DNA of 64,000 nucleotides, from assembly GCA_018062425.1 (NCBI GenBank), contig JAGOSH010000001.1, positions 84,957 to 148,956 on the forward strand. Direction: 5' to 3'. Every line of letters begins with the position of its first letter. Positions within the stretch are counted from its first letter, which is position 1. The position numbers were made by a program, and so were the translations under genes. This stretch comes from Minisyncoccota bacterium. GTDB lineage: Bacteria > Patescibacteriota > Minisyncoccia > Phycocordibacterales > UBA9973. The notes below the pieces were generated by a model, which was not told the origin of the DNA, ran no database searches, and was given only the letters and a program-made list of their open reading frames with translations. Shown here piece by piece: positions 4,915-61,716 of this stretch.

Positions 4915-4988
4915 CTTTTAACTAAACTAGTTTGTATTCTCCGTCCCCACTCGCAATAGAGTGTTAAACGATATGTTATTATACAAAG

Positions 4989-7647: not shown

Positions 7648-7720
7648 GGTGCCTATGGTGTAGTGGTAACACAGAAGCTTGTGGAGCTTTTATCTCCGGT
7701 TCGAATCCGGATAGGCACCC
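7648..7720 (+). tRNA. tRNA-His (GTG anticodon at 7681-7683) with encoded G-1
   Basis: Acceptor GTGCCTA/TAGGCAC, extra 5' G at 7648 opposite C, T-arm GGTTCGAATCC, anticodon loop TTGTGGA; CCA not encoded. Confidence 0.9.
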
Positions 7721-7782
7721 CCGCTAAGCGGGGGTGAGGTGTGCTTAGCACACCACCCCAATAAATTTGCTATAATTTCCGC

Positions 7783-21078: not shown

Positions 21079-21501
21079 ATGCCAACAATCAACCAATTAG
21101 TTAGAAAAAACAGACGAACACCAAAAGGTAAAGACAAGACCGTTGCTTTAACTCGCGGATTTAATGTGCTCAAGAACAAGCCTGTGTATTATTCTTCACC
21201 TTTCAAAAGAGGTGTATGTACAAAGGTAACCACCACCACTCCAAAGAAACCAAACTCAGCTCTCCGAAAGATTGCCCGCGTCAGACTTACCAACGGCTTG
21301 GAAGTTACTGCCTACATCCCAGGTGAAGGACACAATTTGCAGGAACACTCAGTGGTTATGCTACGAGGTGGTCGTGTAAAGGACTTGATCGGAGTACGTT
21401 ACCACATAGTTCGTGGTGTGCTCGATACCCAAGGTGTTGAAAAGAGACGACAAGGACGATCCCTATACGGTAATAAGAAACCTAAAAAAGATAAAAAATA
21501 A
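21079..21501 (+). CDS. rpsL: 30S ribosomal protein S12
   Basis: [10 protein letters not shown]... sequence. Confidence 0.97.
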
Positions 21502-21520
21502 TTCAAAAATAATATAAGCC

Positions 21521-21991
21521 ATGCGACGCAAAGTTAAAAATCGAAATATAGTAGGCAAGGACTTCGTTTACAACTCAGAAAAGCTCGAGAAGTTTATCAA
21601 CTACGTCATGTGGTCTGGTAAAAAAGAAACTGCTCGAAAAGTTGTGTACCAAGCTTTTGAAGTTATCAAAGAGAAGACCGGAAATCCAAATCCACTCGAA
21701 GTATTCGACTTGGCTATGAAAAACGCTGGACCGCTTACCGAAGTTCGTTCCAAGCGTATCGGTGGTGCAAACTACCAGGTTCCACGTGAAGTTCGTGCTG
21801 AAAGGAGATTGGCGCTAGCTATGAGATGGATTCGTGATGCAGCTCGAGGCAAGAAAGGCGTACCAATGCACATGAAACTCGCTGATGAATTGATAGCTGC
21901 TTCAAAGAACGAAGGTGCTGCTGTAAAGAAGAAAGACGATACTCACAAAATGGCAGACGCCAACAAAGCCTTCGCTCACTTCGCTTGGTAA
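21521..21991 (+). CDS. rpsG: 30S ribosomal protein S7
   Basis: GGANYQVPREVR motif; follows rpsL. Confidence 0.95.
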   Translation: MRRKVKNRNIVGKDFVYNSEKLEKFINYVMWSGKKETARKVVYQAFEVIKEKTGNPNPLEVFDLAMKNAGPLTEVRSKRIGGANYQVPREVRAERRLALAMRWIRDAARGKKGVPMHMKLADELIAASKNEGAAVKKKDDTHKMADANKAFAHFAW

Positions 21992-22011
21992 TCTAAATTT
22001 TAAATACTCAC

Positions 22012-22041
22012 AAAAGCCCCTCTGTGGGGCTTTTGTTTTTT
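22012..22041 (+). terminator. rho-independent terminator after rpsG
   Basis: Stem AAAAGCCCC/GGGGCTTTT plus T-run. Confidence 0.75.
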
Positions 22042-22069
22042 ATCTTTATAAGATACAATTTGAATCATA

Positions 22070-23065
22070 ATGCCGGAATTCGATCCGGGGAAAAGAGATT
22101 TTTTAAAGAAGAGTCTTCTCACTACAGGAGCGTTTCTTTTTAAGACCAATTCAACAGTTGCTAAAACTATTGAAAAAACAACTAGGCCATCTAATATGGA
22201 ACAGTTAGGAGACAAAACAACCCTTACTGATTCTGGAGAAAAATTCACTAACGGTGAACATGTATTTAGAGTTAATTTTAAACCAGAGGGTGCAACAGAA
22301 AGTAAAGACGTCGGAGAATTGTGGCCTGTGGGATTGATGAACTTTGTTACCAGAGAAACAGACCCAGACTTATTTCAGTTGGACATGGAAAATTTGTTAA
22401 AAAAAGCTGGAGGAGTAGCTACCTCTCCAGATGGAATGACAAAGGCAGCAAATGGATATGTTTTAGAAGGTAGGTCGCTTGCTCACGGTGAAGTAGTTGA
22501 AGGTAACGGTCAAGAGGTGCCTAGGTACGGTATCGTAGTTTTGGATAATAGGGGTAAAATAACTAAGTTTACTCACGGAGCCGAGTTAGCAACTTATGAT
22601 GCACAAGGTAACGTAACAGAAAAATCAAAATTCGATAAACTTTTTTCTGAAGTTAAGAGTGCCGGAGGAAGTTTGTTTTTCTTGCCAAGCATAATGAGAA
22701 CCTATGGAGGAGAAGTAAAAAAGTTAGAAAATGAAACTATGTTAGAACAGGTGCTCGTCAGGAGGCTTGAACCAGCTGTTGATGGTAATGGAAGACGTCT
22801 ATCTGGGGCAGAGCCCGTGGAAACTTATAAAGTTGTACGCTTTGATCCAATGATTTCATACAAGAATGCTATACGCACACTCGAGGGTTTGAACAGGCAA
22901 AACTCTGACGGTACTATGTCTGCTACCACCCATATATTTATGCTAGATGGAGGACAAGATTGGGACAGGGCTGCGAAAAAGTTGAGTACAAACAATGGAG
23001 AAGAAGTAGTTGTTTTATCAGAAGGGAAGAAAGACCTTGCTACGGCTGCTCTAGTTTTTTATTAA
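22070..23065 (+). CDS. hypothetical exported protein with Tat-like (KR) signal
   Basis: PEFDPGKRDFLKKSLLTTGAFLF N-terminus; weak resemblance (FMLDGGQDW) to phosphodiester glycosidase/DUF2233 proteins. Confidence 0.5.
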   Translation: MPEFDPGKRDFLKKSLLTTGAFLFKTNSTVAKTIEKTTRPSNMEQLGDKTTLTDSGEKFTNGEHVFRVNFKPEGATESKDVGELWPVGLMNFVTRETDPDLFQLDMENLLKKAGGVATSPDGMTKAANGYVLEGRSLAHGEVVEGNGQEVPRYGIVVLDNRGKITKFTHGAELATYDAQGNVTEKSKFDKLFSEVKSAGGSLFFLPSIMRTYGGEVKKLENETMLEQVLVRRLEPAVDGNGRRLSGAEPVETYKVVRFDPMISYKNAIRTLEGLNRQNSDGTMSATTHIFMLDGGQDWDRAAKKLSTNNGEEVVVLSEGKKDLATAALVFY

Positions 23066-23158
23066 AGGCTCCACGGTCATTTCAAAATTTGTCTACTCTT
23101 TACAAGATGACAGATGTTACAAGACCTCCGCTCACTCTGTGTGGTAGACTAAAAGGGG

Positions 23159-25225
23159 ATGCTATCTAAACTTACATTTCAAATAACAACTGCGCTCGGG
23201 GCTTTTTTACTTTTTCTTGCTGAGCCTTTTCTGGCTAAATTTATTACACCAATTGTCGGGGGGTCATTTTCAGTTTGGTCTGCAACAATTGCTTTTTTTA
23301 CCATAGCTCTTTTTTTAGGTTATGTATATGCGTATTCAATTCTTAGGTTAAGCAAAAGTTGGCAGATAGGGGTCCACGGTACATTGGTCTTGTTGTCACT
23401 CGGGTCACTTTTTTCGGGATATCTTTTGTGGGGTTTACCCCTCCTGCCCACTACTAACTTTTTACCAATTCAAAATTGGACTCCCTTTCTTTCAGTGTTT
23501 GTTTTGCTTTCATATTCTATATTAATTCCATTTATTCTTTTGTCATCGACGACTATATTACTCCAACGCTGGCAATCTTCGATTAAGGAAATAGAAGCTA
23601 ATCCCTACCGTCTTTATTCAATATCAAACATTGCCTCATTTGTTGCCCTGGGCAGTTTTCCTTTTCTGTTTGAGCTTTTTATGCCAATGTCGACCCTGTC
23701 CTTTTTCTGGAGTGCGTTTTTTATATTGTATGTAGTATGTCTTTTGTTAGCCATGCGAACATTTGCGAAGAAAGCAGTGATCATCGAGGCACCTACCCAA
23801 GATAGTAACGAGAACCATCCTACAACCAAACAGATTCTGTACTGGCTCGGATATTCCGCACTAGGCACATGGATTCTTGTTTCGGTTACCACTAGCCTTA
23901 ACCAGGGGATTAGTGGCTTTCCATTGTTATCAATCATCCCGTTAGCATTATATTTACTTACCTTTGTAATTGTGTTTCGGGGAGTTTCATTTCCTCCTGT
24001 TTTGGCACCCATAATAATTTTGTCTATTCTCTTGAGCCTACCCATAGAGATACACCTTTGGACAGTGATAGTCCTATCACTCCTCACTTTTCTTTTTTTT
24101 GCGTGTTTTTTCTTACACGAAGCAATATATAAAACAAGGCCAACCATAAAATATCTACCAACATTTTACCTTGTGGTTGCAGGTGGGGGAGCGTTGGGAA
24201 GTTTTCTGGGGAGTATCGTAGCACCTCTAATATTTCCAGACCTGTACGAAACTTTTATAGGCATGCTTGTAGTCATGTTCCTCATAATTCCGACATTAAA
24301 AGGATTAATGATGCAAACTGGATTTAATAAAAAAAGGTCCGGCGCGATTAAGGCTTTGTTGGTTTTTGTATACTTAATGATTATTGCCTCATTTATATTT
24401 CCAAGATTTGGAAAGAATTCAGAAGTACCAACCAGAACTTTTTACGGAATTTATAAAATATATGAGACCAAAGAAGACGTTGGGTCAATGCGGAAATTAA
24501 TTTCCGGGGACATTATTCACGGATCACAATTCACTGATGCGGCACGAAGTGCGGTACCCACTACGTACTATAGTCAAAAAAGCGGAGTAGGAATCGCCCT
24601 TCTTAACATTCGCCAGAATCCAAAATCTGTGGGTGTCGTTGGTCTGGGTACAGGCACCATGAGCGCCTATTGCGGTAGCAATGACCGATTTCGCTTTTAT
24701 GAAATTGACCCAGCTGTTGCCTTAATCGCCAGAAATAAATTCTCATTTATTAGCGATTGCGAAAACAGATCAGGTGTTGTTGAAATAATTATTGGCGATG
24801 CACGCCAATCCTTAGAGAGAGAAGAGGGTAACAATTTTGACATGCTTATTGTTGATGCGTTTACAGACGATGCTATACCCACACATCTTTTGACCCAAGA
24901 ATCTTTTGTAACCTACAAAAAGCATTTGAAAGATACCGGGGTACTCGCAGTGCATGTTTCAAATAAATTCCTAAGTTTAGATCCCATAGTTCTAGGTACT
25001 GCAAAGTCCATAGGTTATTCTGCTCGAGTTATTAAATATATACAACCATCCCCCGAAGAAAGTAAGCTTGGAGCAACAGGATCGAAGTGGGTAATTCTCG
25101 GAAGTGAGGCCTTCCTAAAGGAAGCATTTCCAAACACTGTGTACCCAACAACACCAATAGGTGATCCTTGGACGGATGATAAAAACAGTATCCTACCGGC
25201 GTTTTTAGAAAAAAAGAAGTTTTAA
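23159..25225 (+). CDS. fused polytopic membrane domain / spermidine synthase-like methyltransferase-fold protein
   Basis: About 12 TM segments, then VGVVGLGTGTMSAY and DMLIVDAFTDDAIPTHL (PABS-like). Confidence 0.65.
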   Translation: MLSKLTFQITTALGAFLLFLAEPFLAKFITPIVGGSFSVWSATIAFFTIALFLGYVYAYSILRLSKSWQIGVHGTLVLLSLGSLFSGYLLWGLPLLPTTNFLPIQNWTPFLSVFVLLSYSILIPFILLSSTTILLQRWQSSIKEIEANPYRLYSISNIASFVALGSFPFLFELFMPMSTLSFFWSAFFILYVVCLLLAMRTFAKKAVIIEAPTQDSNENHPTTKQILYWLGYSALGTWILVSVTTSLNQGISGFPLLSIIPLALYLLTFVIVFRGVSFPPVLAPIIILSILLSLPIEIHLWTVIVLSLLTFLFFACFFLHEAIYKTRPTIKYLPTFYLVVAGGGALGSFLGSIVAPLIFPDLYETFIGMLVVMFLIIPTLKGLMMQTGFNKKRSGAIKALLVFVYLMIIASFIFPRFGKNSEVPTRTFYGIYKIYETKEDVGSMRKLISGDIIHGSQFTDAARSAVPTTYYSQKSGVGIALLNIRQNPKSVGVVGLGTGTMSAYCGSNDRFRFYEIDPAVALIARNKFSFISDCENRSGVVEIIIGDARQSLEREEGNNFDMLIVDAFTDDAIPTHLLTQESFVTYKKHLKDTGVLAVHVSNKFLSLDPIVLGTAKSIGYSARVIKYIQPSPEESKLGATGSKWVILGSEAFLKEAFPNTVYPTTPIGDPWTDDKNSILPAFLEKKKF

Positions 25226-25255
25226 GCAATATTTTGCAAATATCCTTGCTTTTAT

Positions 25256-25284
25256 TTGCAAAAAAGGGGTTTGTGGGGTATAGT
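25256..25284 (+). promoter_or_regulatory. sigma70-like promoter TTGCAA-17-TATAGT for fusA
   Basis: TTGCAA 25256-25261, TATAGT 25279-25284. Confidence 0.55.
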
Positions 25285-25328
25285 GACGGAAGCGCTAGAC
25301 GCGCTTTTTTATTAGTTAAATTACAATT

Positions 25329-27479
25329 ATGGAAAGAGATTACCCACTAGAGAAAGTTAGAAATTTTGGAATTATTGCGCATATCGATGCTGGTAAGACT
25401 ACCACCACCGAGCGTGTTTTATTTTATACAGGTGTGTCCCACAAAATCGGTGAAGTTCACGATGGTGAAACTACAACCGACTGGATGGAACAGGAACGAG
25501 AGCGAGGTATCACTATTACTTCTGCTGCAGTTACTTGTTTCTGGACACCGACCTACGCGGCTCCAACAGACAAGAAGTTGAAACACCGTTTCAACATCAT
25601 CGATACCCCTGGGCACATCGACTTTACAGTGGAAGTGAAAAGATCTCTTCGAGTACTCGACGGAGCAGTGGTTGTGTTCGACGGTGTGGCCGGTGTAGAG
25701 CCACAGTCTGAAACCAACTGGCGTTATGCTGACGAAGCTAACGTTCCTCGTATCTGCTTCATCAATAAGCTCGACCGAACTGGCGCGTCTTTTGAACACT
25801 CCTACAAAACGATTTTGGATCGTTTGACCAAAAAAGCTGTCCGTATGCAAATCCCAATCGGGCTTGAAGAAAAGCACGATGGTGTTATCGATCTCCTTAA
25901 AATGAAGGCGTATTACTTTGAAGGAGAAATGGGTAATACTGTAATAGAAAAAGAAATCCCAGAAGAATACAAAAAAGAAGCAGAAGGTTACCACAATGAA
26001 CTTGTAGAAAAAATTGTTGAAAACGATGAAGCTCTGATGACCGAATACCTGGAAGGTATTGTGCCAGGTTATGACACTTTGAAAAAAGTTCTCCGTAAGG
26101 CTGTAATCGCAAACGCAATATTCCCAGTGTACGCAGGTTCGGCGCTCAAGAACAAAGGTGTTCAGCTTGTACTCGACGCTGTGGTTGACTATCTACCAGC
26201 TCCTACTGATATCCCACCTATCCCTGGTATCGACCCTAATACTGACGAGCCAACAGAGCGCAAAGCTTCTGACTCAGAGCCTTTTTCTGCTCTTGCTTTC
26301 AAAGTCGCTACTGACCCATTCGTAGGACAAATCATTTTCTTCCGTGTTTACTCTGGTTCTCTTTCAGCTGGAAGTTATGTTTACAATCCTCGTACACGAA
26401 ACAAAGAAAGAATCGGACGTATCTTGCGTATGCATGCGAACGACCGGGAAGAAGTAAAGAAAGTTTACGCTGGTGAAATCGCAGCAGCGGTAGGACTCAA
26501 AGATACCATTACTTCCGACACTATTTGTGACGAAGCAGCTCCAGTAGAACTAAACCGTATCGTTTTCCCTGAACCAGTTATCTCTCTACGTATTGAACCA
26601 AAGACAAAAGCTGACCAAGAAAAAATGGGTATGGCATTAAACCGTCTAGCTCAAGAAGACCCAACTTTCAGAGTTACTACTGATCAAGAAACAGGGGAGA
26701 CCATCATCGCTGGTATGGGTGAACTACACTTGGAAATCATTGTTGATCGTATGAAACGCGAGTTTACTGTCGAAGCAAACGTAGGTAAGCCGCAAGTTGC
26801 ATACAGAGAGACTATCAATGGCACTGCTGAAACAGAAGGAAAATACATCAAGCAGTCTGGTGGACGTGGTAACTACGGTCACGTAAAGATCAAGGTAAAG
26901 CCGATGGTAGCATTAACCAAAGAAGAGATAGAAGATCTACCAAAGAACACCAAACGTTCTGAAGCTTTCGAATTCATCAACAGCATCAAAGGAGGTGCTA
27001 TTCCTCAGGAATACATCGCTCCTTGTGAAAAAGGATTTAAAGAAGGTCTCGACCGTGGTATCCTCGCTGGGTTTAAAATGGTAAACGTTTCAGTAGAGCT
27101 ATGGGATGGATCTTTCCACGAAGTGGACTCCAACGAAATGGCTTTCAAAATCGCAGCTTCTATGGCAATCCAAGACGCATGTCGTGCTGCTCGCCCAGTA
27201 ATCCTCGAGCCGATGATGAAGGTTGAAGTTGTAACCCCAGATAAATTCATGGGTGACGTCACCGGTAACCTATCTTCAAAGCGTGGAATCATCGAGGGCC
27301 TAGAAGACCGTGGTATGAACAAGGTTGTGAAGGCTATAGTCCCTCTTTCTGAAATGTTTGGATACATGACCGGACTACGTTCTATGACCGAAGGCCGAGC
27401 ATCATTCACCATGGAGTTCACTCGTTACGATATTGTTCCAAACAACGTAGCAGATACAATCATCGCAGCTCGTAAGTAA
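25329..27479 (+). CDS. fusA: translation elongation factor G
   Basis: [25 protein letters not shown]-domain motifs; 716 aa. Confidence 0.97.
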
Positions 27480-31194: not shown

Positions 31195-32043
31195 ATGAAA
31201 AAATATATTAAACTTTTTTTACTCATTTTAGTTTTATTACCTTTTTCTGCTACAGCTTATGAACTCCAGCCGTATTACGTACAAAAAATTGATGAGATCG
31301 AAAGTAAAATAACCGTCAAAGATAGATACGGTAAGTTTTACGTACTAACATATGGTCCTGAATGTAGTGGATGGTGGACGTATACGGGGCAGAGAATATA
31401 CATCAACGCTAGAGGGCCATTCCTAGACGGTGTGGAAGACGAAATATTTCTAAATGACTTAGGAATTCGAGCTTGTCCTGTTCGGAAAGTTTCTTATGTC
31501 AAAGGCGGTCCTGGTTATTACGTGATACACCAAAGTAGTATCTGTCCGGACCACGGCTTCATTTCGCCAGTCGATGCCAATATGTGTGAGTGCACCTCTG
31601 GATATAAATTCGATATTGACCGGCACATTTGTGTCCCTTTCAAAACGAACGATCAAATTTGTAAAGAAAGATTCGGTCTTTACAGTGTCTGGGACGGTAC
31701 TTTTGACCAGAAACATGCGCTTAATTGTATCTGTAAAACAGGCTTTATCTGGAATCAGAGTAAGACAGCCTGCGTCAGAGACAAGGTTGCCACTAACAGT
31801 GTTGGAGCGGTAGCCAAAACAGATATACAAACCACAAACGAAACACCAGGTGCTGCTCTGGGAGATAGTGCTGAGAGCGCAGAGAACGTACAAACAGAAA
31901 CAGAAACAATCTTAACCAATAATACTCAGAATAATACTCAAAGAGCACCTTGGTACAAGACATTTTTAGGAATGGTAATTATATTGGTAGTGGTGATGCT
32001 CGTTGTATACAATTTAGTAAAAGCCTACAAAAATCGACAGTAG
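31195..32043 (+). CDS. secreted Cys-rich protein with EGF-like repeats and C-terminal TM anchor
   Basis: Signal peptide; CECTSGYKFD..HICV and CICKTGFIWN..ACV repeats; C-terminal hydrophobic segment. Confidence 0.55.
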   Translation: MKKYIKLFLLILVLLPFSATAYELQPYYVQKIDEIESKITVKDRYGKFYVLTYGPECSGWWTYTGQRIYINARGPFLDGVEDEIFLNDLGIRACPVRKVSYVKGGPGYYVIHQSSICPDHGFISPVDANMCECTSGYKFDIDRHICVPFKTNDQICKERFGLYSVWDGTFDQKHALNCICKTGFIWNQSKTACVRDKVATNSVGAVAKTDIQTTNETPGAALGDSAESAENVQTETETILTNNTQNNTQRAPWYKTFLGMVIILVVVMLVVYNLVKAYKNRQ

Positions 32044-32296
32044 TAAATATATTTGACATTTCCTAACATAAAGGTTAATTTTGATTAAATTCTTTCACTA
32101 AATCTTTCTTTGTTGTATGGGAAAAGCAGACGCAATCTATAAAGCCTGTATGGGCTTTCTTATTCTCGTGTTTTTCAGTTTCGCCTTGTACGTTGGCTTT
32201 CATTATTAGCCTTTCGGTAAAAAAAGGTTTCTTAATAACCTAAAAACTTCACAATGTGTGAAAAATATTGAGCGGGTAGTTTCCGTTATAAAACTG

Positions 32297-32320
32297 CCCA
32301 TCTTTTAGATGGGTTTTTTT
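32297..32320 (+). terminator. rho-independent terminator
   Basis: Stem CCCATCT/AGATGGG plus T7. Confidence 0.7.
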
Positions 32321-32478
32321 ATTTGGAAATTTCACATTGACAAATCATGTAATTTTTATAAGATAAAAATATGTTTACCAAAAGTAACCAATATATGCTG
32401 ATTAAGATTTCTACCCGAACCACCGCTTGGGGCGTTACTTTTGCTTTAGCTTAATCCAGAACAATAATCTAAACCAAA

Positions 32479-32520
32479 AGCAGCTCTCCAAGCCCTAGGC
32501 CTGGAGAGCTGCTTTGTTCT
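32479..32520 (+). terminator. rho-independent terminator (12-bp stem)
   Basis: AGCAGCTCTCCA/TGGAGAGCTGCT followed by TTTGTTCTTT. Confidence 0.65.
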
Positions 32521-32588
32521 TTAAGCTCTTTGACACTTTTTCTAACCTTTCGGCCTAAAAGCCGAATACAAACCCAACCCGCTTTGTT

Positions 32589-32972
32589 ATGAAAAACATA
32601 GCAATATTCTGCTTATTGTTCGCATGTATTAGCGCTTCTGCCCAAAATATTCTTCTGGGCGAAAATGCTTATGTTGAATTTTTGCACCATGACACTATTA
32701 AGATAGAGTTGTATAACTTGTACACTTTCTCTGTACTGAAAAAAGATAAAATCAGAGTAGAAAAAATGCAATATGCTTACAACAAAGCAACGAAGGGCTT
32801 GGTCGTCATAAAATCAAGCATAGTAGTCAACGAATCTGATGTCCCTGAAAACATCTGTGAGTTCACATTCAAGAGTGATGACATATTGGTTAAGGCTTAT
32901 AGAAAGCCTACACATTGTTTTCTCTTGCTGATGAATAAGGCCTACACCCATTTTGGGATTGCGCTTAGGTAA
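32589..32972 (+). CDS. small secreted hypothetical protein (signal ending ...ISASAQN)
   Basis: Signal peptide; shares its upstream element with the next gene. Confidence 0.5.
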   Translation: MKNIAIFCLLFACISASAQNILLGENAYVEFLHHDTIKIELYNLYTFSVLKKDKIRVEKMQYAYNKATKGLVVIKSSIVVNESDVPENICEFTFKSDDILVKAYRKPTHCFLLLMNKAYTHFGIALR

Positions 32973-33031
32973 AAATACATCAAATTTTTCTAACTCTTCG
33001 GTTAATCCGAATACAAAAGCTTCATCACATT

Positions 33032-34498
33032 ATGAAAAAGCTAAATCTAACCCTCGCTTTTTTAGTCGCAGTTGACTGTATTTCCGCTCAAGATTTACCA
33101 TTGCAAAACCAACCTGGAAACAATGTCCAACCGCGTGGCGATTGCATTGAGGTATTGAATACCTCACAATTCTTCGCCGGTGAATTCGGTGGAGGGCAAG
33201 GAACTTCTTCTGTTTGTTTTTCATTCCCGTCCACATGTGGAGCGGAAGGCAGGATGAACTCAAATTCAGTTGTGGACTTCCTACAGTTCTCGGTTGGTAG
33301 TGATACTTCAGGTGTTATTGGGGTTGGTTCGTCAGGCTTCGGTGATCTTGAATATCTTTCGGTTGGTCAGGTAGTTCTTCTGCCATTTGATTTTTCACCA
33401 CCGCGGGCGTTTGAAGGACCGATTCACATTGACGTTGGGTCTGATGGATTCATTGTTGAAAAACTTTCAGATGGCTTAACTGGGGATATGTTTTTTACAG
33501 TTAGTTTACAGAATTTCTCTATAACCTTGTTGTCAAACAGGAGTCATTTCACCAACTACAGCATTGAGTGTAAGCCGCTCAATGTATGCGCTGATTATGT
33601 CGGTGTTCAGTATGCCGTGGCTTGCCCAGGGAAGGACTTATTTCTTGTGTCTAAATGTTATGACTCCGATTACAAGACAATTTGGATTAATCCAGAGGGC
33701 GACACCATTATCTGCGAACTGGATACCCTGCGTGTAAATGACCCAGTTTCTGTCGGAGCATATCAATGGATAACCCCATGCAACAAGGGGTATGTGTTGG
33801 TTTACAACCCAGACTCGGTTAGAATCGAAAATCGGCAAATTTTTTGCTCAAGCAAGCAAAAACTTTTTTTGCCAACTGGCCTGAAGGGTAATTGGTCAAA
33901 TGGGGTAGAAAACTCAAACTACATTCAGGTAACAAGTCCTGGTACTTACTGGGTAAATGTTTCAAACTGCATACAGGATTCAATAGCTGTAGATATAATT
34001 TTTGAGGATCTTGATTTGGACTTACATTTCGTTCCAGACGTGGATACAATACTGTTCTTTCAAGAACTAAAAGTTATTCCTGAAGCAATATCTGGTACAA
34101 CATTTACTTGGCAAAAAGATGGTCAACCTGTCTGGGGTTACTATGGAACAGGACTCTATACCATAACCGGCACCTATGACGAATGTCGAGAGCAGGATAC
34201 GATTCTGGTGATTCCGGAACTTTTTTCTGAATGCGATTGGCCTGTATATAAGCCTACTGTGTTTTCGCCAAACAGTGATGGGGTAAACGACCTGTTTCAA
34301 GTTTTTGGGCCCGACGGTTCGGTATCTAAGATATGGGTGTACGACAGGTGGGGAGGGCTCATGTATTCTGGTGAGGCTTGGGATGGTACCTGGGAAAGCA
34401 AAGAGCTCAAGCCCGGTGTTTATACATTTAAGGCACGGGTTGTTTGGGGTTTTGAAGAATGTTCACGTATCTATGGTGATGTTACCTTAATTCGGTAA
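33032..34498 (+). CDS. secreted protein with T9SS type-B (gliding-motility-associated) C-terminal sorting domain
   Basis: Signal ...DCISAQD; C-terminus VFSPNSDGVNDLF..WVYDRWGGLMYSGEAWDGTW..PGVYTFKARV..GDVTLIR. Confidence 0.8.
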   Translation: MKKLNLTLAFLVAVDCISAQDLPLQNQPGNNVQPRGDCIEVLNTSQFFAGEFGGGQGTSSVCFSFPSTCGAEGRMNSNSVVDFLQFSVGSDTSGVIGVGSSGFGDLEYLSVGQVVLLPFDFSPPRAFEGPIHIDVGSDGFIVEKLSDGLTGDMFFTVSLQNFSITLLSNRSHFTNYSIECKPLNVCADYVGVQYAVACPGKDLFLVSKCYDSDYKTIWINPEGDTIICELDTLRVNDPVSVGAYQWITPCNKGYVLVYNPDSVRIENRQIFCSSKQKLFLPTGLKGNWSNGVENSNYIQVTSPGTYWVNVSNCIQDSIAVDIIFEDLDLDLHFVPDVDTILFFQELKVIPEAISGTTFTWQKDGQPVWGYYGTGLYTITGTYDECREQDTILVIPELFSECDWPVYKPTVFSPNSDGVNDLFQVFGPDGSVSKIWVYDRWGGLMYSGEAWDGTWESKELKPGVYTFKARVVWGFEECSRIYGDVTLIR

Positions 34499-50294: not shown

Positions 50295-53072
50295 ATGGAT
50301 TCGTTTTCTTTTAAAGGAATGCCAAAATTTAAAACTCCAGAAGAGGAGTTGGCTTTTTTGCGTGCACACGTAGCTGAAAAGGAGCAGGCTCTCATTGATA
50401 AGGGCCACTTTGAAAGTGCTAAAGAAAACGCAATTACCAGCACTATTTTAGAATACAAAAATGTGCCAGCGCAAGAAGCAGTCCACAAAGACAACCTGAT
50501 CCAAGAAAAAGAACAAGAAGGAATCGTACTAAAGTTAAAACCCGAGACCCATGATACTGTCATGGAAGAACTTTTGGGATTGCTTATAACAAAAGGCATC
50601 AGGAATGCTCTGGCTATTGTGGAATCAATGAATAATCCCCACGTAGACGATGACTTCCATAGGATACTTATTCAATATCTAAAAACTGGCCAATTGGCTG
50701 GTCTGCTCAAAGAAGGTACACCACTTTGGAAGTCACTAAACATGACACTTTTCGAAGTCACCTTACCACCACCGCACGACGAAGCCAGTAAATCAAAAGG
50801 ATTCAAAGAATTTATCGGAGCAATGGAGCAATTCTATGCTGGTATGCATTCGATCTCGGATGAGCCTAGAAATCTAAAAGAGAATTACTTTACACTAGAA
50901 ATTGCGCTATCGAGTTCTTCTGACGAGGTTATCATCTACGCGGCTGTTCCCAACAAACATTTGGCGTTGTTCGAGAAACAAGTTTTGGCTTTTTACCAAG
51001 ACGCTAAGGTTGTGGAGTCGACTAACGACTACAACATCTTCAACGATAACGGAGCGTCTGCTGGAGCGTATGGGGCCTTTGTTGAAAATTCTATTTTACC
51101 GATAAAGACATACGACAGCATCGACCACGATCCGATGAATACTATTTTGAATGTCTTCTCGAAACTAAAGACCAAGGGTGAGGGCGCGGCTATTCAGCTA
51201 GTTGTAGCACCAGCTGGAAATAAATTTATTCACGATTTCACCGAAATACTTCGTGATGTAAAAAAAGGTGATTCTATAAAACACGCTTCAAATAATTTTT
51301 ATAAGTTCCATTATGCTCTGTTCAATGCCGGGAAAGAGTTTTTTATGGACTCTAATAAGAAAGGTGAAGATGCTCCGATGCCAGGCAGGAGAACCGTGGA
51401 TGAAGGCGCGGCCGAGAAGATTTCTAATAAAATGAAAGCCAGCATCATGAAAGCAAATTTACGCGTCATTGCCTCTGCTGACACCAAAGAACGGGCAGAC
51501 GGAATACTAGCAGAAATAGAATCATCTTTTAACCAGTTCAACGAGCCAGCCAGCAATTCTTTTGTTTTTGAAAAGTTAAAGGGTAGTGATTTGAAGAAAC
51601 TTTTCCATGAATATTCTTATCGTGCTTTTAACGCAGATAAAACTTTGCCGATGAACTTAAAGGAGTTGGCCTCGGTTTTCCATTTCCCAGTAGGTATCGG
51701 CAGTCAACCAGCACTCAAGGAAGCCAAGGCTGGTATGGCGCCAGCACCTGTTGAATTGAGTGTTTTGGGTAGTAGTGACGGAATTATTTTGGGAGTGAAT
51801 GAATACCGTGGCAAAGAAACTACCATTCGAATGACCAAAGAAGACAGAATGCGACACATGTATGTTATCGGTCAGACTGGTACTGGTAAAACCACAATCC
51901 TAAAAAACATGATTTACCAAGATATCCAAAATGGTGATGGATGTTGTTTCATTGACCCGCACGGTACTGACATTCAGGATATACTTTCCTATGTTCCGAA
52001 AGAGCGCATAGATGACGTTATCTATTTCGACCCGGCATATACTGCGCGTCCGATGGGGCTTAATATGTTGGAGTACGATCCGAATTATCCAGAACAGAAA
52101 ACCTTTGTGGTGAACGAACTTATGGGTATATTCAACAAACTCTTCGACATGAAGGTGGGTGGTGGTGCTATGTTCGAACAGTACTTCCGAAACAGTGCTT
52201 TCCTGGTGATGGAAGACCCAGAATCCGGTTCTACTATGCTCGAGATTACTCGGGTATTGGCAGACAAAAAGTTCCGTGACATGAAACTGGCCAAGTGTAA
52301 GAACCCTATCATCAAGCAATTCTGGATTTCGGCGGAGGAGACTACAGGGGACCAGTCGTTGGCTAACTTCGTGCCGTATATTTCTTCTAAATTCGATAAC
52401 TTCATTTCCAACGATATTATGCGTCCGGTGGTTCTGCAACAAAATTCTGTGTTCAACTTCAGAAAAATAATGGATGAGAAGAAAATCCTTCTAGTGAATT
52501 TGTCCAAAGGAAGGCTGGGGGACATCAACGCGAATTTGATTGGTCTCGTGCTGGTTGGTAAAATCCAGATGGCGGCACTTTCTCGGGTGGATATGTTCGG
52601 AAAACCGATGAATGATTTCTATCTTTACATCGATGAATTCCAGAACGTCACCACAGACTCTATTGCGTCTATTTTATCTGAAGCTCGTAAATACAGACTT
52701 TCGCTTACTATTGCTCACCAATACATTTCTCAGCTCGAGGAAAGTATCAAGAATGCTGTTTTTGGTAACGTCGGTTCAATGGCTATATATCGTATTTCCA
52801 CCGAGGATGCCAACTTTGTCGAGCCTAAATTCAAACCTACTTTTTCCGCTAATGACATTACCAAGCTCGACAACTTTAATTCATATGTGAGTATGTTGGT
52901 CGGAGGACAGCCAGTGAAGCCTTTCTCCATGACTTCACACTGGAGTTTGGTAGCAAAAGGGAACAAAGAAGTCGTTGATGCCCTCAAAGAGCTATCTTAC
53001 ATGAAGTATGGCCGCCCACGTGAAGAAGTGGAGGAGGAAATAATGGGTAGATTTAACTCTTCGATGCAGTAG
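50295..53072 (+). CDS. VirD4/TraG/TraD-like (type IV coupling protein family) P-loop NTPase with a large novel N-terminal domain
   Basis: GQTGTGKTT Walker A, CCFIDPHG, YLYIDEFQN Walker B, ARKYRLSLTIAHQYISQL; no TM segment seen. Confidence 0.6.
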   Translation: MDSFSFKGMPKFKTPEEELAFLRAHVAEKEQALIDKGHFESAKENAITSTILEYKNVPAQEAVHKDNLIQEKEQEGIVLKLKPETHDTVMEELLGLLITKGIRNALAIVESMNNPHVDDDFHRILIQYLKTGQLAGLLKEGTPLWKSLNMTLFEVTLPPPHDEASKSKGFKEFIGAMEQFYAGMHSISDEPRNLKENYFTLEIALSSSSDEVIIYAAVPNKHLALFEKQVLAFYQDAKVVESTNDYNIFNDNGASAGAYGAFVENSILPIKTYDSIDHDPMNTILNVFSKLKTKGEGAAIQLVVAPAGNKFIHDFTEILRDVKKGDSIKHASNNFYKFHYALFNAGKEFFMDSNKKGEDAPMPGRRTVDEGAAEKISNKMKASIMKANLRVIASADTKERADGILAEIESSFNQFNEPASNSFVFEKLKGSDLKKLFHEYSYRAFNADKTLPMNLKELASVFHFPVGIGSQPALKEAKAGMAPAPVELSVLGSSDGIILGVNEYRGKETTIRMTKEDRMRHMYVIGQTGTGKTTILKNMIYQDIQNGDGCCFIDPHGTDIQDILSYVPKERIDDVIYFDPAYTARPMGLNMLEYDPNYPEQKTFVVNELMGIFNKLFDMKVGGGAMFEQYFRNSAFLVMEDPESGSTMLEITRVLADKKFRDMKLAKCKNPIIKQFWISAEETTGDQSLANFVPYISSKFDNFISNDIMRPVVLQQNSVFNFRKIMDEKKILLVNLSKGRLGDINANLIGLVLVGKIQMAALSRVDMFGKPMNDFYLYIDEFQNVTTDSIASILSEARKYRLSLTIAHQYISQLEESIKNAVFGNVGSMAIYRISTEDANFVEPKFKPTFSANDITKLDNFNSYVSMLVGGQPVKPFSMTSHWSLVAKGNKEVVDALKELSYMKYGRPREEVEEEIMGRFNSSMQ

Positions 53073-53944: not shown

Positions 53945-54364
53945 ATGGACAAGAGGAAGCTTTTCAATCGGCAAGCATTACTGGTGGCAATCATTGCTCT
54001 TGTTAATTATGGCGCTATCAAGTTCCATTGGTACTATTCATTGTGGTGGTTTGATATGCCGATGCACTTTTTGGGTGGTATGTGGGTAGCCATGTTGTTA
54101 GCTTGGTATTTATCAGATGACCGGTTTTCAACTGATTCAGTAGGGCGGGTTATATTAGGTGCTTTTATAGTAGGTTTGTCTTGGGAAGTTTTCGAACTTT
54201 TGCTAAATGAGCAATTTGTACAGAACGCCTATGACCTGCCGGATACATTATCAGATATTTTCTTTGACCTCTCGGGAGCATTTACGGCAGTATTTTACGT
54301 AGCTTTACGTATTATGAATATTCCGGAAAGTGGGTTAAAATTCTACAATGCAGAAAAAAGTTAA
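53945..54364 (+). CDS. small polytopic membrane protein
   Basis: 4 hydrophobic segments; TGaTATAAT lies 6 nt before the ATG. Confidence 0.55.
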   Translation: MDKRKLFNRQALLVAIIALVNYGAIKFHWYYSLWWFDMPMHFLGGMWVAMLLAWYLSDDRFSTDSVGRVILGAFIVGLSWEVFELLLNEQFVQNAYDLPDTLSDIFFDLSGAFTAVFYVALRIMNIPESGLKFYNAEKS

Positions 54365-55712
54365 CATACAGTTTTGGGGTGGGGCTGGTTCGGTTACTGG
54401 CTCCAATTTTCTTTTAGAAATCGACGGTAAAAAAATCCTGATAGACTGTGGGCTCAATCAGGGTACCAAGATGGCGGACGATATAAACTGGGAGCCGTTT
54501 CAATACGCAGTTAATACTGTGGATATTCTTTTTGTTACTCACGCCCATGTTGACCACCTGGGTCGGGTGCCTAAACTAATTAGTGAAGGTTTCCAGGGGA
54601 AAATATATTCAACTCTACCAACCAAGTCACTTGCTCAGCCAATGATCGAGGACACGGCTTTTATTTTAGGGCACAACAGAGAATTCGACCTTGCAGAAAT
54701 TTATTCGGAAAGTAATATAAAAACCTCACTGTCTTTGTGGGAGGGTTTTCCTTATTACGAAAAGATTCAGATAACCGACAACTTATCTTTTACTTTCTAT
54801 AATGCTGGTCACATACTTGGCTCAGCTATGATTTTGTTTACCTACAACGGCAAAAATATTTTGTTCACTGGAGACCTGGGTAATAGCCCTTCGCCAATAT
54901 TGCCAGATACAGACAAGGTAGAAGGTGTGGACTATTTGATCATGGAATCCGTCTACGGAGATCGTAACCACGAGTCACGAGATGAGCGCAAGAAACTGTT
55001 AGAGTCGGTTATCGAAGACAACTTCAAACAAAAGGGTACACTACTCATACCCACCTTTTCTCTCGAGCGTTCCCAAGAACTTCTTTTTGAGCTCAATGAC
55101 TTGGTAGAGAATAGACGAATTCCGATCATGCCGATTTTCTTTGATTCACCGCTCGCCATAAAATTGACTGAAATCTTCAAGCAATACAAAGAATACTTTA
55201 ATGAAAGTGCCAAAGCCGCCATGGTTCACGACAAATACATTTTTGACTTTCCTGGGCTCCACACAACGCTCAAGACCGAAGAGTCAAAGGTTATTTTCAA
55301 ATACCCAGATCCGAAAGTCATCATCGCTGGTAGTGGTATGTCCTCTGGGGGGCGTATTGTGCACCACGAGAAAGAACACTTACCAAATCCAAACAACACC
55401 ATACTACTAACTGGTTACCAGTCTGCGGGAACATTGGGCAGGCTCATTCAAGAAGGGGTCAAGACTATTCGTATCGCCGGGGAAGAAGTAAAGGTCAAGG
55501 CCAAAGTAGTAACTATTATGGGTTACTCTGGACACAAAGATTCAGACGCACTGATTAACTTTGTAGAAGAAATGCAGGAGACACTCAAAAAAGTTTTTGT
55601 GGTCATGGGTGAACCGAAGTCTTCTTTGTTCCTAGCGCAAAAACTGAAAGACAACCTGGGTCTCGATGCCGAGACTCCAAACATGGGGGACAGTGTTACC
55701 TTGGAGTGGTAA
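54348..55712 (+). CDS. MBL-fold beta-CASP family (RNA-metabolising) metallo-hydrolase
   Basis: HAHVDHLG motif, beta-CASP-length insert, C-terminal GYSGHKD. Confidence 0.8.
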   Translation: MQKKVNIQFWGGAGSVTGSNFLLEIDGKKILIDCGLNQGTKMADDINWEPFQYAVNTVDILFVTHAHVDHLGRVPKLISEGFQGKIYSTLPTKSLAQPMIEDTAFILGHNREFDLAEIYSESNIKTSLSLWEGFPYYEKIQITDNLSFTFYNAGHILGSAMILFTYNGKNILFTGDLGNSPSPILPDTDKVEGVDYLIMESVYGDRNHESRDERKKLLESVIEDNFKQKGTLLIPTFSLERSQELLFELNDLVENRRIPIMPIFFDSPLAIKLTEIFKQYKEYFNESAKAAMVHDKYIFDFPGLHTTLKTEESKVIFKYPDPKVIIAGSGMSSGGRIVHHEKEHLPNPNNTILLTGYQSAGTLGRLIQEGVKTIRIAGEEVKVKAKVVTIMGYSGHKDSDALINFVEEMQETLKKVFVVMGEPKSSLFLAQKLKDNLGLDAETPNMGDSVTLEW

Positions 55713-56345: not shown

Positions 56346-57329
56346 ATGGGCAAAGAAGGCTTTTCAAATAGCAGGAGAAATTTTTTAAAAACAGGCTTTA
56401 CTTTACTGGCTGGAGCTGCGGCACTTTCTGCTTTACCTCAATTGGCTGCTTGTGAAAGAATTGATGAAAAGGAACAAATAAAAAAGTTCTTTAAAGAATA
56501 TAATGAAAAATACCCCACTATAGGAGACAAAATAATCGAGCAAAAATCTTGGTTTTTGAAATATATGGATTCTCCAATCTACAAGAAGTTATTAACTGAA
56601 GAGATAAAAAAAGACACGCCCCATTGGGATGAGTGGGGAGAGTTCGGAGAATGGGTAGAATATAACATAAAAGGAAGAAGGTCTTTGGTTGAAAATGTTA
56701 TTTTTGTATCTAAAGACGATCCAGGTGACCATAGGAAGTTATATGCTAAAAGAATTGCAACAGAAGAAATGTACAGACAAGACTTAGTCCCGATTAATAA
56801 CGGGATCAATGAAGATCCCGGCTCGCCTCGATACCCACAAGAAGTGAGTTTGGTTGTTATAAATATTGAAAGCCACGATCAAAGTAACCCAAATCCTTTT
56901 TGGAATAATACAGTTTTTTGTCACGAACTTCACCATGCTGCTGTTAAAAACGATGATTTGATATTAGTATCGACTTCAGATAGATTCCAAAAAAAATTAG
57001 CTAAAATACAGCTTAAAGATGGGCTTGAGTCATCTTATACTGAGTATGTATTGGACCCCGGAGAAAACATGGCCGCGATAATTGAAGCAAGAAAAGCTCT
57101 ACACGATTTGGGGAAGATGGATGGTTTTAAAGATAAATTTACGGAGGGGCACATAGAATATTTAAAAAAATATGCAAAGGATATATTCCTTGAATCTACG
57201 GTTATGACCAGCTTCCTTTTTAGTGATTATATGAAAAATAACCATATATCCAACAAAAACTTATCAGACATGATGAACAACTTCGCTGGTCTGTCTGCCC
57301 CTGAAGACTCGAACTCTAGAATGAGCTAA
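56346..57329 (+). CDS. Tat-signal lipoprotein-like putative HExxH metalloprotein (paralog A)
   Basis: SRRNFLK twin-arginine motif, LAAC lipobox-like, FCHELHH, C-terminal EDSNSRMS. Confidence 0.6.
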   Translation: MGKEGFSNSRRNFLKTGFTLLAGAAALSALPQLAACERIDEKEQIKKFFKEYNEKYPTIGDKIIEQKSWFLKYMDSPIYKKLLTEEIKKDTPHWDEWGEFGEWVEYNIKGRRSLVENVIFVSKDDPGDHRKLYAKRIATEEMYRQDLVPINNGINEDPGSPRYPQEVSLVVINIESHDQSNPNPFWNNTVFCHELHHAAVKNDDLILVSTSDRFQKKLAKIQLKDGLESSYTEYVLDPGENMAAIIEARKALHDLGKMDGFKDKFTEGHIEYLKKYAKDIFLESTVMTSFLFSDYMKNNHISNKNLSDMMNNFAGLSAPEDSNSRMS

Positions 57330-57361
57330 ATAACCTCCTAAAGCATACGTCACTTAATACC

Positions 57362-58375
57362 ATGAAAACACCTGAATTTTCACCAGAACGAAGAAAGTTT
57401 CTAAGGAATTCTTTAGAAGCGACTGCAGCGGTTGTGCTAGCTCCAGCAGAGAAGGTGACCAGGTTATTTGAAAACAAAGAGGAAGATTTAGAACAAAAAC
57501 ACATAAAGGATTGCATTGCTGAATACAATAAAAAGTATCCAGAAATAAAAGATAAAATTAGAGAACAGAAAAAATGGTTTTTAAGGTACATGGATTCTGA
57601 TTTGTATAAAAAGCTTTTGGCTAAAGAGATGGAGAGAGCTTTAGGTGTTTTGGCTGAATCCAGCGACAGTGAGAAGAAAACCCTGAAAGAGTTCGTGAAT
57701 TCTGAGTTGAAAGATAGAAAATTGAAAGTAAAAAATATAAAATTTTTTATAGATCATACAATAGAAGGTAGTATTGATGCTTACACAACAATATTGAATA
57801 TTAATGATATTTCCGATCTTAGTAGAGTAGAATATCTCGGCAACAGAGAGGACCTGCCAAAAGAAGAGAGTTTTATGGGGGTTGTAGTTAACGAAATACC
57901 TTTCAATTCAGATTGTCTGAATAACTTCGAAGGGGTCAGTGTTTTTTGTCACGAATTGCATCATATTTCTCTAACAAAAATAAAATCTGCAGAGACGCAG
58001 CCGGTAAAAAAAACTGATGATATTTTTAAAGACAAACTTTTGCAAAGTAGTTTAGATAGCACTCAGGTTGGATCTGGTAAAGAGGCGTATGTTCTAAGCA
58101 CAGCAGAGAATATGGCTAGAATCATAGCTGTACGTAAAACTTTGTTCCAGCTGGGGAAGATGAAGTCTTTTAAAGATGAATTTACTGAAAAACATATTGA
58201 GTATATAAAGAAATACCTCGATGATTTGTTCCCAAAGACATCCTTTATTCGTTATCTTTTTAGTGGGGAGCTTAAAAAAGAAAATAAAGCTATCGACAAT
58301 CAAACACTGCTTGAATTAATGAACAGTTTTGCTGATGTTTTTGAATCTGAAGATCTAAATAGTAGAATGAGCTAA
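57362..58375 (+). CDS. Tat-signal putative HExxH metalloprotein (paralog B)
   Basis: ERRKFLR, FCHELHH, C-terminal EDLNSRMS; collinear similarity to 56346..57329. Confidence 0.6.
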   Translation: MKTPEFSPERRKFLRNSLEATAAVVLAPAEKVTRLFENKEEDLEQKHIKDCIAEYNKKYPEIKDKIREQKKWFLRYMDSDLYKKLLAKEMERALGVLAESSDSEKKTLKEFVNSELKDRKLKVKNIKFFIDHTIEGSIDAYTTILNINDISDLSRVEYLGNREDLPKEESFMGVVVNEIPFNSDCLNNFEGVSVFCHELHHISLTKIKSAETQPVKKTDDIFKDKLLQSSLDSTQVGSGKEAYVLSTAENMARIIAVRKTLFQLGKMKSFKDEFTEKHIEYIKKYLDDLFPKTSFIRYLFSGELKKENKAIDNQTLLELMNSFADVFESEDLNSRMS

Positions 58376-58376
58376 T

Positions 58377-58406
58377 TAAAAAACCCTCGCATAACGAGGG
58401 TTTTTT
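58377..58406. terminator. bidirectional terminator
   Basis: AAACCCTCG/CGAGGGTTT flanked by A-run and T-run. Confidence 0.75.
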
Positions 58407-60866: not shown

Positions 60867-61310
60867 ATGGCGACATATGCTGAAAACAAAAGAGCCCGGT
60901 TTGATTACGAGATCCAGGAGAAATACGAATGCGGTATCGAACTTTTGGGTACCGAGGTCAAAGCCGTCCGTAGTGGCAAAGTCTCCCTCTTGGGGTCTTT
61001 CGTCATCATCCGCGGAGGAGAAGCGTTTCTGATTAACGCTAATTTTCAACCATACCAAGAAGCCAATGCACCAAAGGATTATGACCCACTTCGAAATCGC
61101 AAACTACTTTTGACCAAAAAAGAAATCCGAGAATTGGCCGACACCGAGAAAAACAAAAGTTTGACGATAGTGGCTATTTCGTTGTATAGTAAAAACCGCA
61201 AAATCAAAATGGATATTGCGGTGGCGCGAGGTAAAAAGAAGTTCGACAAACGCGAAACTATCAAGAAGCGTGAAACGGATATAGAGCTTCGCCGTCAGTA
61301 TAAGAGGTAG
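60867..61310 (+). CDS. smpB: SsrA-binding protein SmpB
   Basis: ENKRARFDYEI... sequence; immediately upstream of the tmRNA. Confidence 0.95.
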   Translation: MATYAENKRARFDYEIQEKYECGIELLGTEVKAVRSGKVSLLGSFVIIRGGEAFLINANFQPYQEANAPKDYDPLRNRKLLLTKKEIRELADTEKNKSLTIVAISLYSKNRKIKMDIAVARGKKKFDKRETIKKRETDIELRRQYKR

Positions 61311-61329: not shown

Positions 61330-61711
61330 GGGACTGCAAGGCATAGACAGTAAGCCGTCGTGCTAGCAATGCATGTCGAGGATGAACGCACGCTCGTTAA
61401 TAAGCGTTCAAAGCCTAATTGCAAAATTAGCATCAGCTAAAGTATCTTCATACTTCAGTATGAAGGACTTTACTCCAGCGTACGCTTTAGCGTAACTGGC
61501 GTCTTCTCCATCGACTTCCGATGCATGGATGAAGGTGTAATATTATCGGGATAAGGAAGTACCTGCTCACACACTTCACGAAAATTTAGAGCTCGACCGA
61601 AAGATATTTTGTTCGTTTAATAATCTTTTGGTTTAAACATTTAAACCAACTAAACATGTAGATTTGCTGGCGCACCCTTTCTGCACGGGGATTCAATTTC
61701 CCCCAGTTCCA
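61330..61711 (+). ncRNA. ssrA: tmRNA (ssrA), one-piece
   Basis: Acceptor GGGACTG/CAGTTCC with a G3-U70 pair, T-arm GGGGATTCAATTTCCCC, internal tag frame ending ...PAYALA-TAA at 61493-61495. Confidence 0.85.
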
Positions 61712-61716
61712 CAACC

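Follow-up and report, generated by a model that had tools for sequence, protein, structure and literature searches.

What is the function of two adjacent genes of a Minisyncoccota bacterium whose products both combine a twin-arginine-type N-terminus, an HExxH site and a nearly identical C-terminal tail? The genes, here called paralogs A and B, lie in a stretch of 64,000 nucleotides of contig JAGOSH010000001.1 (assembly GCA_018062425.1). This whole stretch is referred to below as the window, all coordinates are positions in it, and the residue numbers of the core family features follow B unless A is named. On balance, we favour the view that A and B are zinc-dependent, metallopeptidase-like enzymes of a rare family, which would be exported by the twin-arginine translocation (Tat) system and would act outside the cytoplasm on the cell envelope, as their conserved motifs and a structural model suggest. 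The family is also homologous to virion proteins of Bacteroidota phages, a new result of which the initial annotation of this DNA made no mention.

A tandem pair with a gluzincin-like signature

The pair and its motifs are located as follows.

56346..57329, + strand: paralog A, an open reading frame (ORF) of 327 amino acids (aa), A-type subfamily
56370..56390, + strand: Tat-type motif SRRNFLK of A (residues 9-15), followed by the G/A-rich core TGFTLLAGAAALSALPQLAAC; 18.1 bits against TIGR01409, core hydrophobicity 1.86
56442..56453, + strand: lipobox-like LAAC of A (residues 33-36), which fits [LVI][ASTVI][GAS]C by eye
56922..56936, + strand: HELHH (HExxH) of A (residues 193-197), invariant across homologues
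57063..57074, + strand: ENMA of A with the invariant E240, proposed third zinc ligand; this Glu is invariant in 10 domain copies
57303..57326, + strand: tail EDSNSRMS of A, directly before the stop codon (from the alignment and codons)
57362..58375, + strand: paralog B, an ORF of 337 aa, B-type subfamily
57386..57406, + strand: Tat-type motif ERRKFLR of B (residues 9-15), followed by the core ATAAVVLAPA; no Tat model above its cut-off
57950..57964, + strand: HELHH (HExxH) of B (residues 197-201), inside the predicted helix 190-204
58106..58117, + strand: ENMA of B with the invariant E249, at the start of the predicted helix 247-264, a candidate "glutamate helix" (from the alignment and the model)
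58349..58372, + strand: tail EDLNSRMS of B, directly before the stop codon (from the alignment and codons); predicted local distance difference test score (pLDDT) about 34

A and B lie 32 nt apart on the + strand; a full-length BLASTP alignment gives 38% identity (E 1e-53) and the comparison of the close members 37%, in agreement with the adjacent, collinear paralogs that the initial annotation had described; all motifs that it listed were found at the expected places. The block YNEKYP followed by WFL-x-YMDS-x-x-YKKLL is present in both proteins, with YNKKYP in B. In NCBI, A is recorded as MBP6866327.1 under the name [quoted passage not shown] and B has the locus tag KBC12_02165, both records being placed under GCA_017991565.1, a metagenome-assembled genome (MAG) of Candidatus Pacebacteria.

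Neither protein contains a Pfam domain, and searches of NCBIfam and of PDB profiles assigned them to no family. Word-indexed protein searches with B, A and a 9-sequence alignment returned only 4, 1 and 5 proteins, respectively, and an exhaustive profile search (1.84 billion representative proteins, E ≤ 1e-3) was therefore needed to reach the distant members. It gave 10 matches: five full-length close members (A, B, P0002, P0004 and P0006), three distant full-length members with about 22% identity (P0007, P0008 and P0011), one phage protein of 1286 aa (P0009) and one spurious match. The last of these, P0010 (3310 aa, with DUF11/DUF7507 repeats), was rejected for its failure to match the wider profile. 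P0003, a sixth close member, was obtained by a word-indexed search, and a scan of a genome collection with the family alignment gave no match. The six close members are 33-60% identical overall and form two subtypes, the B-type (B, P0002, P0003 and P0004, with 45-60% mutual identity and 51-60% between B and the other three) and the A-type (A and P0006, 46% identity). Overall, the domain is distributed over one clade of Paceibacteria, a small number of other bacteria, Bacteroidota among them, and Bacteroidota phages. The family of A and B is very small, unnamed and so far undescribed.

The initial annotation had made its reading depend on the conservation of HExxH among homologues. This site is kept in every homologue found, both in the six close members and in 10/10 domain copies of a core alignment of cellular and phage sequences that are 18-39% identical to B. 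Only seven residues are invariant in all ten copies: the H, E and H of HExxH, E249, R258, N321 and A324. The invariant Glu lies 47-48 residues after HExxH in the motif [DS]P-x-E-x-x-A-R, with the Arg nine residues further on, and the invariant N and A belong to a C-terminal MNN-x-A motif. His278 (in FTE-x-H) was considered as a candidate ligand and excluded, since the phage copies have Gln in its place. A ligand pattern of HExxH plus Glu is the gluzincin or thermolysin-type motif, and the invariant pattern of this family is, judged by its residues, a gluzincin-like signature. The active site would have a gluzincin-type core in which zinc is held by the two His of HExxH and by the Glu about 48 residues on (E249), and the Glu within HExxH may serve as the general base.

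An AlphaFold2 (AF2) model of B, built from nine sequences, reached a pLDDT of 76 and a predicted template modelling score (pTM) of 0.77. In this model a long helix (102-125) precedes four strands (127-131, 140-146, 156-159 and 170-177), which are followed by the helix that carries HExxH (190-204) and by a helix that begins at E249 (247-264). In the published description of zincin peptidase domains (PMC5512222), a small sheet is followed by a helix that carries HExxH and by a second one that supplies the Glu ligand, and the predicted order of elements matches that description. We consider the family zincin-like by motif and topology, and a putative member of the superfamily.

Searches of fold and profile databases, proposed in the initial annotation as a check of the HExxH fold, gave a divided answer. 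Pfam, NCBIfam, PDB sequence profiles and Foldseek against the PDB with both models returned no significant match to a known peptidase family, which counts against a metallopeptidase, but zincins did appear among the weak matches (E about 0.5-3). The weak Foldseek matches that carry a functional name are mostly zincins, namely selecase, anthrax lethal factor, SprT-like proteins, an M34 endopeptidase and a crAss "metallopeptidase domain" protein; selecase, although not significant, was the best match of the first model. With gluzincins such as selecase, proabylysin and the thermolysin-type enzymes, the family shares the HExxH...E ligand pattern and an E-x-x-A on the following helix. It differs from them in having no significant sequence or fold match, in its 47-48-residue spacer between HExxH and Glu, which contains a low-confidence insert, and in a large, family-specific N-terminal helical region (residues 43-125).

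That neither sequence nor fold leads to a significant match with a known peptidase could also mean that the HExxH domain is non-catalytic and serves virions and cell surfaces as a structural or binding module, in which the conserved His and Glu have a structural role. The annotation of the phage relatives, described below, only as structural or tail proteins would fit such a module. However, the H, E and H of the motif and the downstream E are among the only seven residues that cellular and phage copies, about 20% identical, all have in common, and in the model they occupy the helices expected for a zincin, a pattern typical of an active site. A non-catalytic domain appears very improbable to us.

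Relatives in virions of Bacteroidota phages

Six of the six proteins scanned (A, B, P0007, P0008, P0011 and P0009) matched phrog_24249, annotated as "tail protein", with E-values from 1.5e-11 for P0011 to 5.9e-4 for A (1.5e-4 for B). The alignment covers the last ~130 of the 739 profile positions and corresponds to the stretch from HExxH to MNN-x-A in each member. A tblastn search with P0011 led to tail or structural proteins of the Cellulophaga phages phi4:1 and phi17:2. Foldseek against BFVD, which holds predicted viral structures, found structural proteins of phi14:2 (E 3.6e-5) and phi4:1 (E 4.6e-5) over about 280 aligned columns, as well as three proteins of crAss-like phages, with probabilities of 0.98-1.0 overall.

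The phi4:1 protein gp041 (739 aa) is a virion protein by tandem mass spectrometry (MS/MS). It is composed of a PF18013 tail lysozyme (E 5e-32) and then two copies of the domain, which carry the N-terminal motif of the family (FMLDYIQSDKYSERL) and its C-terminal motif (LMNNIA). In scans of a viral contig collection, A and B had no relatives, and the gp041 query matched gp041 alone. The phage protein P0009 likewise contains two domain copies, and its gene stands among the giant virion genes of a phage of the crAss-like type, close to a CrAss_Ring_1 gene. The phrog_24249 proteins (gp041 of phi4:1 and those of phi17:2 and phi14:2) are similar to A and B in that their C-terminal stretch aligns with every family member scanned, and Foldseek aligns about 280 columns with a probability of 1.0. 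They differ in architecture, gp041 having 739 residues, an N-terminal tail lysozyme and two domain copies, and neither a signal peptide nor the NSRMS tail.

Some further features of P0009 may be recorded here. Its contig (L015, from Logan SRR23126118) carries neighbouring giant genes without a Pfam match, coding for 1698, 1352 and >4500 aa. The protein contains several repeats of a short basic motif resembling GGRILKSK, and at its C-terminal end there are matches to DUF5754 and phrog_220 ("minor head protein and DNA pilot").

By analogy with the phage proteins, the most likely target of A and B would be the cell envelope, either the peptide stems of peptidoglycan or surface proteins, and either the cell's own envelope or that of an attached host. 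This suggestion is drawn from the presence of the domain in phage virion proteins, once fused to a tail lysozyme and often in two copies. Two considerations weigh against it: domain co-occurrence in phage proteins is its sole basis, and for such domains in multi-domain phage proteins a different role, the cutting of the carrier protein, has been proposed (PMC5512222).

Along the latter line, A and B could be peptidases for protein processing and not for attack on the wall, with the carrier virion protein as substrate in the phage and secreted proteins of the cell or of its partner as substrates in the bacterium. The zincin domains of polyvalent phage proteins are often present in several copies, stand beside lysozyme domains and are proposed to cut their carrier proteins into functional units (Iyer, Burroughs, Anand, de Souza and Aravind, 2017, PMC5512222). 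These polyvalent-protein zincins resemble the present family in the HExxH helix and in the conserved Glu on the next helix, both placed after a small beta-sheet. The phage proteins gp041 and P0009, as large multi-copy virion proteins with a lysozyme fusion in the case of gp041, have exactly the polyvalent-type layout, which A and B do not. Nothing obvious could be released from A, B and the Bacteroidota members, each of which consists of a single domain, and A and B are moreover cellular proteins with export signals. The elements W-x-L-x-Y-x-x-S-x-x-Y and MNN-x-A are specific to the family of A and B. Finally, with E thresholds between 0.1 and 1, PF18818, the Pfam model of the polyvalent-protein peptidase domain, is not among the Pfam matches of A, B, P0007, P0008, P0011, P0009 or gp041. 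We think a role in protein processing somewhat unlikely, and an enzyme directed at the envelope remains the explanation that we prefer.

Export signals and a proposed Tat route

The Tat motifs of A and B, called textbook examples in the initial annotation, both stand at residues 9-15, and none of the six close members departs from their RR; in these members the pattern F-S/N-x-x-R-R-x-F/A-[LI]-[KR] is unchanged in 6/6. Profile models agree with a Tat-like N-terminus only in part. A exceeds the cut-off of TIGR01409 (18.1 against 16.7) but falls below that of PF10518 (10.9 against 22.7), and B matches neither model. G, A and T abound in the signal cores, whose best 12-residue hydrophobicity of 1.4-1.9 lies below the values of about 2.0-3.6 of Sec-type signals in this window. 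The cores close with LP, AP, TP or VP, followed by K or R. In sequence terms, this combination of a weak core, a terminal Pro and following basic residues is made up of classical Tat traits. B has in addition a possible A-x-A cleavage site (residues 27-30), with APA before and E after the cut.

The more distant members also begin with export-type signals. In P0007 and P0008 the signal at this position is of the lipoprotein type, and in P0011 its place is taken by a signal-like N-terminus with RKRFLK. These lipoprotein or signal-like N-termini indicate that the family as a whole is extracytoplasmic.

The initial annotation had regarded a Tat route as unexpected in a minimal genome. This no longer holds, because TatA and TatC have already been reported in MAGs of Paceibacteria, Microgenomatia and Saccharimonadia (PMC9166423), which would make Tat export unsurprising here; tatBC has also been reported in one Saccharibacteria genome (PMC6031116). 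Tat export of A and B is plausible and would not be novel. Both proteins would most likely be exported in a folded state by TatA/TatC through their twin-arginine signals, possibly already loaded with zinc. AmiA and AmiC of Escherichia coli are Tat-exported zinc cell-wall hydrolases. They offer a parallel for the logic of export only, namely a twin-arginine signal on a zinc-dependent extracytoplasmic enzyme, as they are amidase_3 enzymes without HExxH and are not homologous to A or B.

The route may nevertheless be a different one. A and B could be exported or anchored by the general secretory (Sec) pathway, or be tethered by an uncleaved N-terminal helix, in which case the RR would be a habit of this lineage in the signal N-region and no Tat system would be involved. 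The failure of B to pass any Tat model fits this possibility, and so does its uncharged signal core of only 10 residues, which tells against Tat export. No tatA or tatC gene was detected in the window and about 9 kb past its end (~73 kb in all), in a search that comprised phmmer with TatA and TatC sequences of E. coli and Bacillus subtilis, a TatA motif, and a scan for a protein of ~250 aa with six membrane segments. Furthermore, distant members have ordinary lipoprotein or Sec signals, a supplementary table lists the KEGG Tat module as absent or incomplete for all classes of the Candidate Phyla Radiation (CPR) (PMC9166423), and the protein at 22070, described below, has the PEF-x-P-x-x-R-x-FL N-terminus with KR. 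On the other side, six sequences with only 33-60% identity all keep R-R-x-F/A-[LI]-[KR], the hydrophobicity of the cores is clearly below that of the Sec signals in this genome, A lies above the TIGR01409 cut-off, and the main text of the same study does place TatA and TatC in Paceibacteria (PMC9166423). We judge export or tethering without Tat to be unlikely, and continue with Tat as the favoured route.

The lipobox-like LAAC noted earlier in A is present at residues 33-36 but is absent from its closest relative, the A-type P0006, which has no Cys at this position; the lipobox is not conserved, a further argument against this part of our proposal. A might be lipid-anchored by the lipobox, and B might be released or held by its signal peptide.

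The initial annotation had also pointed to an unrelated protein of the window with a similar beginning.

22070..23065, + strand: unrelated protein of 331 aa with the N-terminus MPEFDPGKRDFLKKSL, like that of B; not a family member

The similarity is real (MPEFDPGKRDFLKKSL in this protein and MKTPEFSPERRKFLRNSL in B, with PEF-x-P-x-x-R-x-FL-x-x-SL in common), though the 22070 protein has KR instead of RR. Its core is 10 residues long and weakly hydrophobic. Neither Pfam nor NCBIfam gives a match for it, and the scan of the genome collection yielded no homologues. A recent exchange of DNA as the source of the N-terminus common to B and this protein was rejected, since the DNA alignment shows only scattered identity. 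The gene occupies a slot after rpsL-rpsG (21079-27479), which contains the exported protein at 22070, a 688-aa protein with 13 predicted membrane segments and then fusA. In another genome, the distant member P0007 is encoded between rpsG and fusA (L010, 7003-11196). In these genomes, genes for secreted or membrane proteins appear to have been inserted repeatedly into the str operon.

The tail, the locus and possible origins

Both proteins end in nearly identical tails directly before the stop, as the initial annotation had stated. After acidic residues, the tail N-[STG]-R-[MIW]-[SG]-COOH is kept in 6/6 Paceibacteria members, with N-x-R invariant, but it is absent from the distant members and the phage copies. 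The proposed family-specific tag is accordingly a feature of one clade. A survey for similar tails, which the initial annotation had advised, found no other ORF of the window that ends like NSRMS. The tail has no membrane segment and matches no sorting signal known to us, and its low pLDDT suggests disorder. In some minimal gluzincins a C-terminal tail blocks the active site. By analogy with these enzymes, one may speculate that the disordered, clade-specific tail is a latency or docking element.

The codons for RR and for the tail differ synonymously between A and B (AGG AGA and CGA AGA for RR; GAC/GAT, AAC/AAT and TCT/AGT in the tail). Gene conversion as the cause of the identical tails was ruled out on this basis, and the differences indicate that the identity of RR and tail is kept by selection at the protein level and not by recent gene conversion. 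Related Patescibacteria genomes have a single copy in the same slot, between LDcluster4 and rplT, which is of the B-type in one and of the A-type in another. Because single copies of either type are found in this position, comparison of the genomes shows that the pair goes back to an old tandem duplication, of which other lineages retained one copy.

Upstream (5') of A on the same strand are a beta-CASP metallo-beta-lactamase gene and then an SLOG/LDcluster4 gene, 9 nt after which the pair starts. Downstream, rplT-rpmI-infC converges with B, beyond a hairpin.

58378..58406, no strand assigned: hairpin with A-run and T-run flanks, between the convergent B and rplT; folding dG -19.8 kcal/mol, z -7.8 against shuffles

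This hairpin is probably a bidirectional terminator that serves both the B and the rplT sides. The very short gaps between genes of the same strand suggest that the DUF2238 gene (53945-54364, +) through B form a single transcription unit. The DUF2238 gene overlaps the start of the beta-CASP metallo-beta-lactamase gene (54348-55712, +) by 17 nt. Further upstream, a 925-aa protein (50295-53072, +) contains DUF8128 and a faint match to a TrwB-like ATP-binding domain; its synteny is kept in all related Patescibacteria contigs examined.

Elsewhere in the window, smpB (60867-61310) is directly followed by the tmRNA gene (61330-61714; Rfam RF00023, 126.7 bits). A tandem of large genes for P-type cation ATPases (770 and 866 aa) occupies 2602-7589 (+) and is followed by tRNA-His (7648-7722).

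Two observations concern Bacteroidota. In the genome of the distant member P0008, the neighbouring gene codes for a protein sorted by the type IX secretion system (T9SS), which is a Bacteroidota system, and this neighbour points to a Bacteroidota source. The window itself contains at 31195-34498 (+) three ORFs (282, 127 and 488 aa) with very hydrophobic signal peptides, two of which end in SAQ. The 488-aa protein (33032-34498) has a T9SS type B sorting domain (PF13585 CHU_C, 36.3 bits with a cut-off of 27; TIGR04131, 41.2 bits with a cut-off of 35). In another CPR genome (L010) an ABC transporter gene directly adjoins tuf; in the window the three genes stand between these two, and the region looks like a ~3.7-kb insertion acquired from Bacteroidota.

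One may imagine a more far-reaching scenario, in which this Paceibacteria lineage took a virion-type, envelope-breaching zincin from Bacteroidota or their phages, added a Tat signal and the N-S-R-M-S-COOH tail for latency or docking, and now opens the wall of an attached Bacteroidota host with two diverged copies, the T9SS sorting gene being a trace of the partnership. We regard this as improbable, and a role in host interaction is speculative.

CPR bacteria live attached to other cells, and the enzymes of this interface are mostly unknown. Although the Tat aspect alone is not new, the pair A and B is a concrete and testable candidate for an envelope-active enzyme. The same domain provides a functional lead for the unannotated "structural" or "tail" proteins of Cellulophaga and crAss-like phages, and it may be a sign of gene flow that links Bacteroidota or their phages with a lineage of CPR bacteria.

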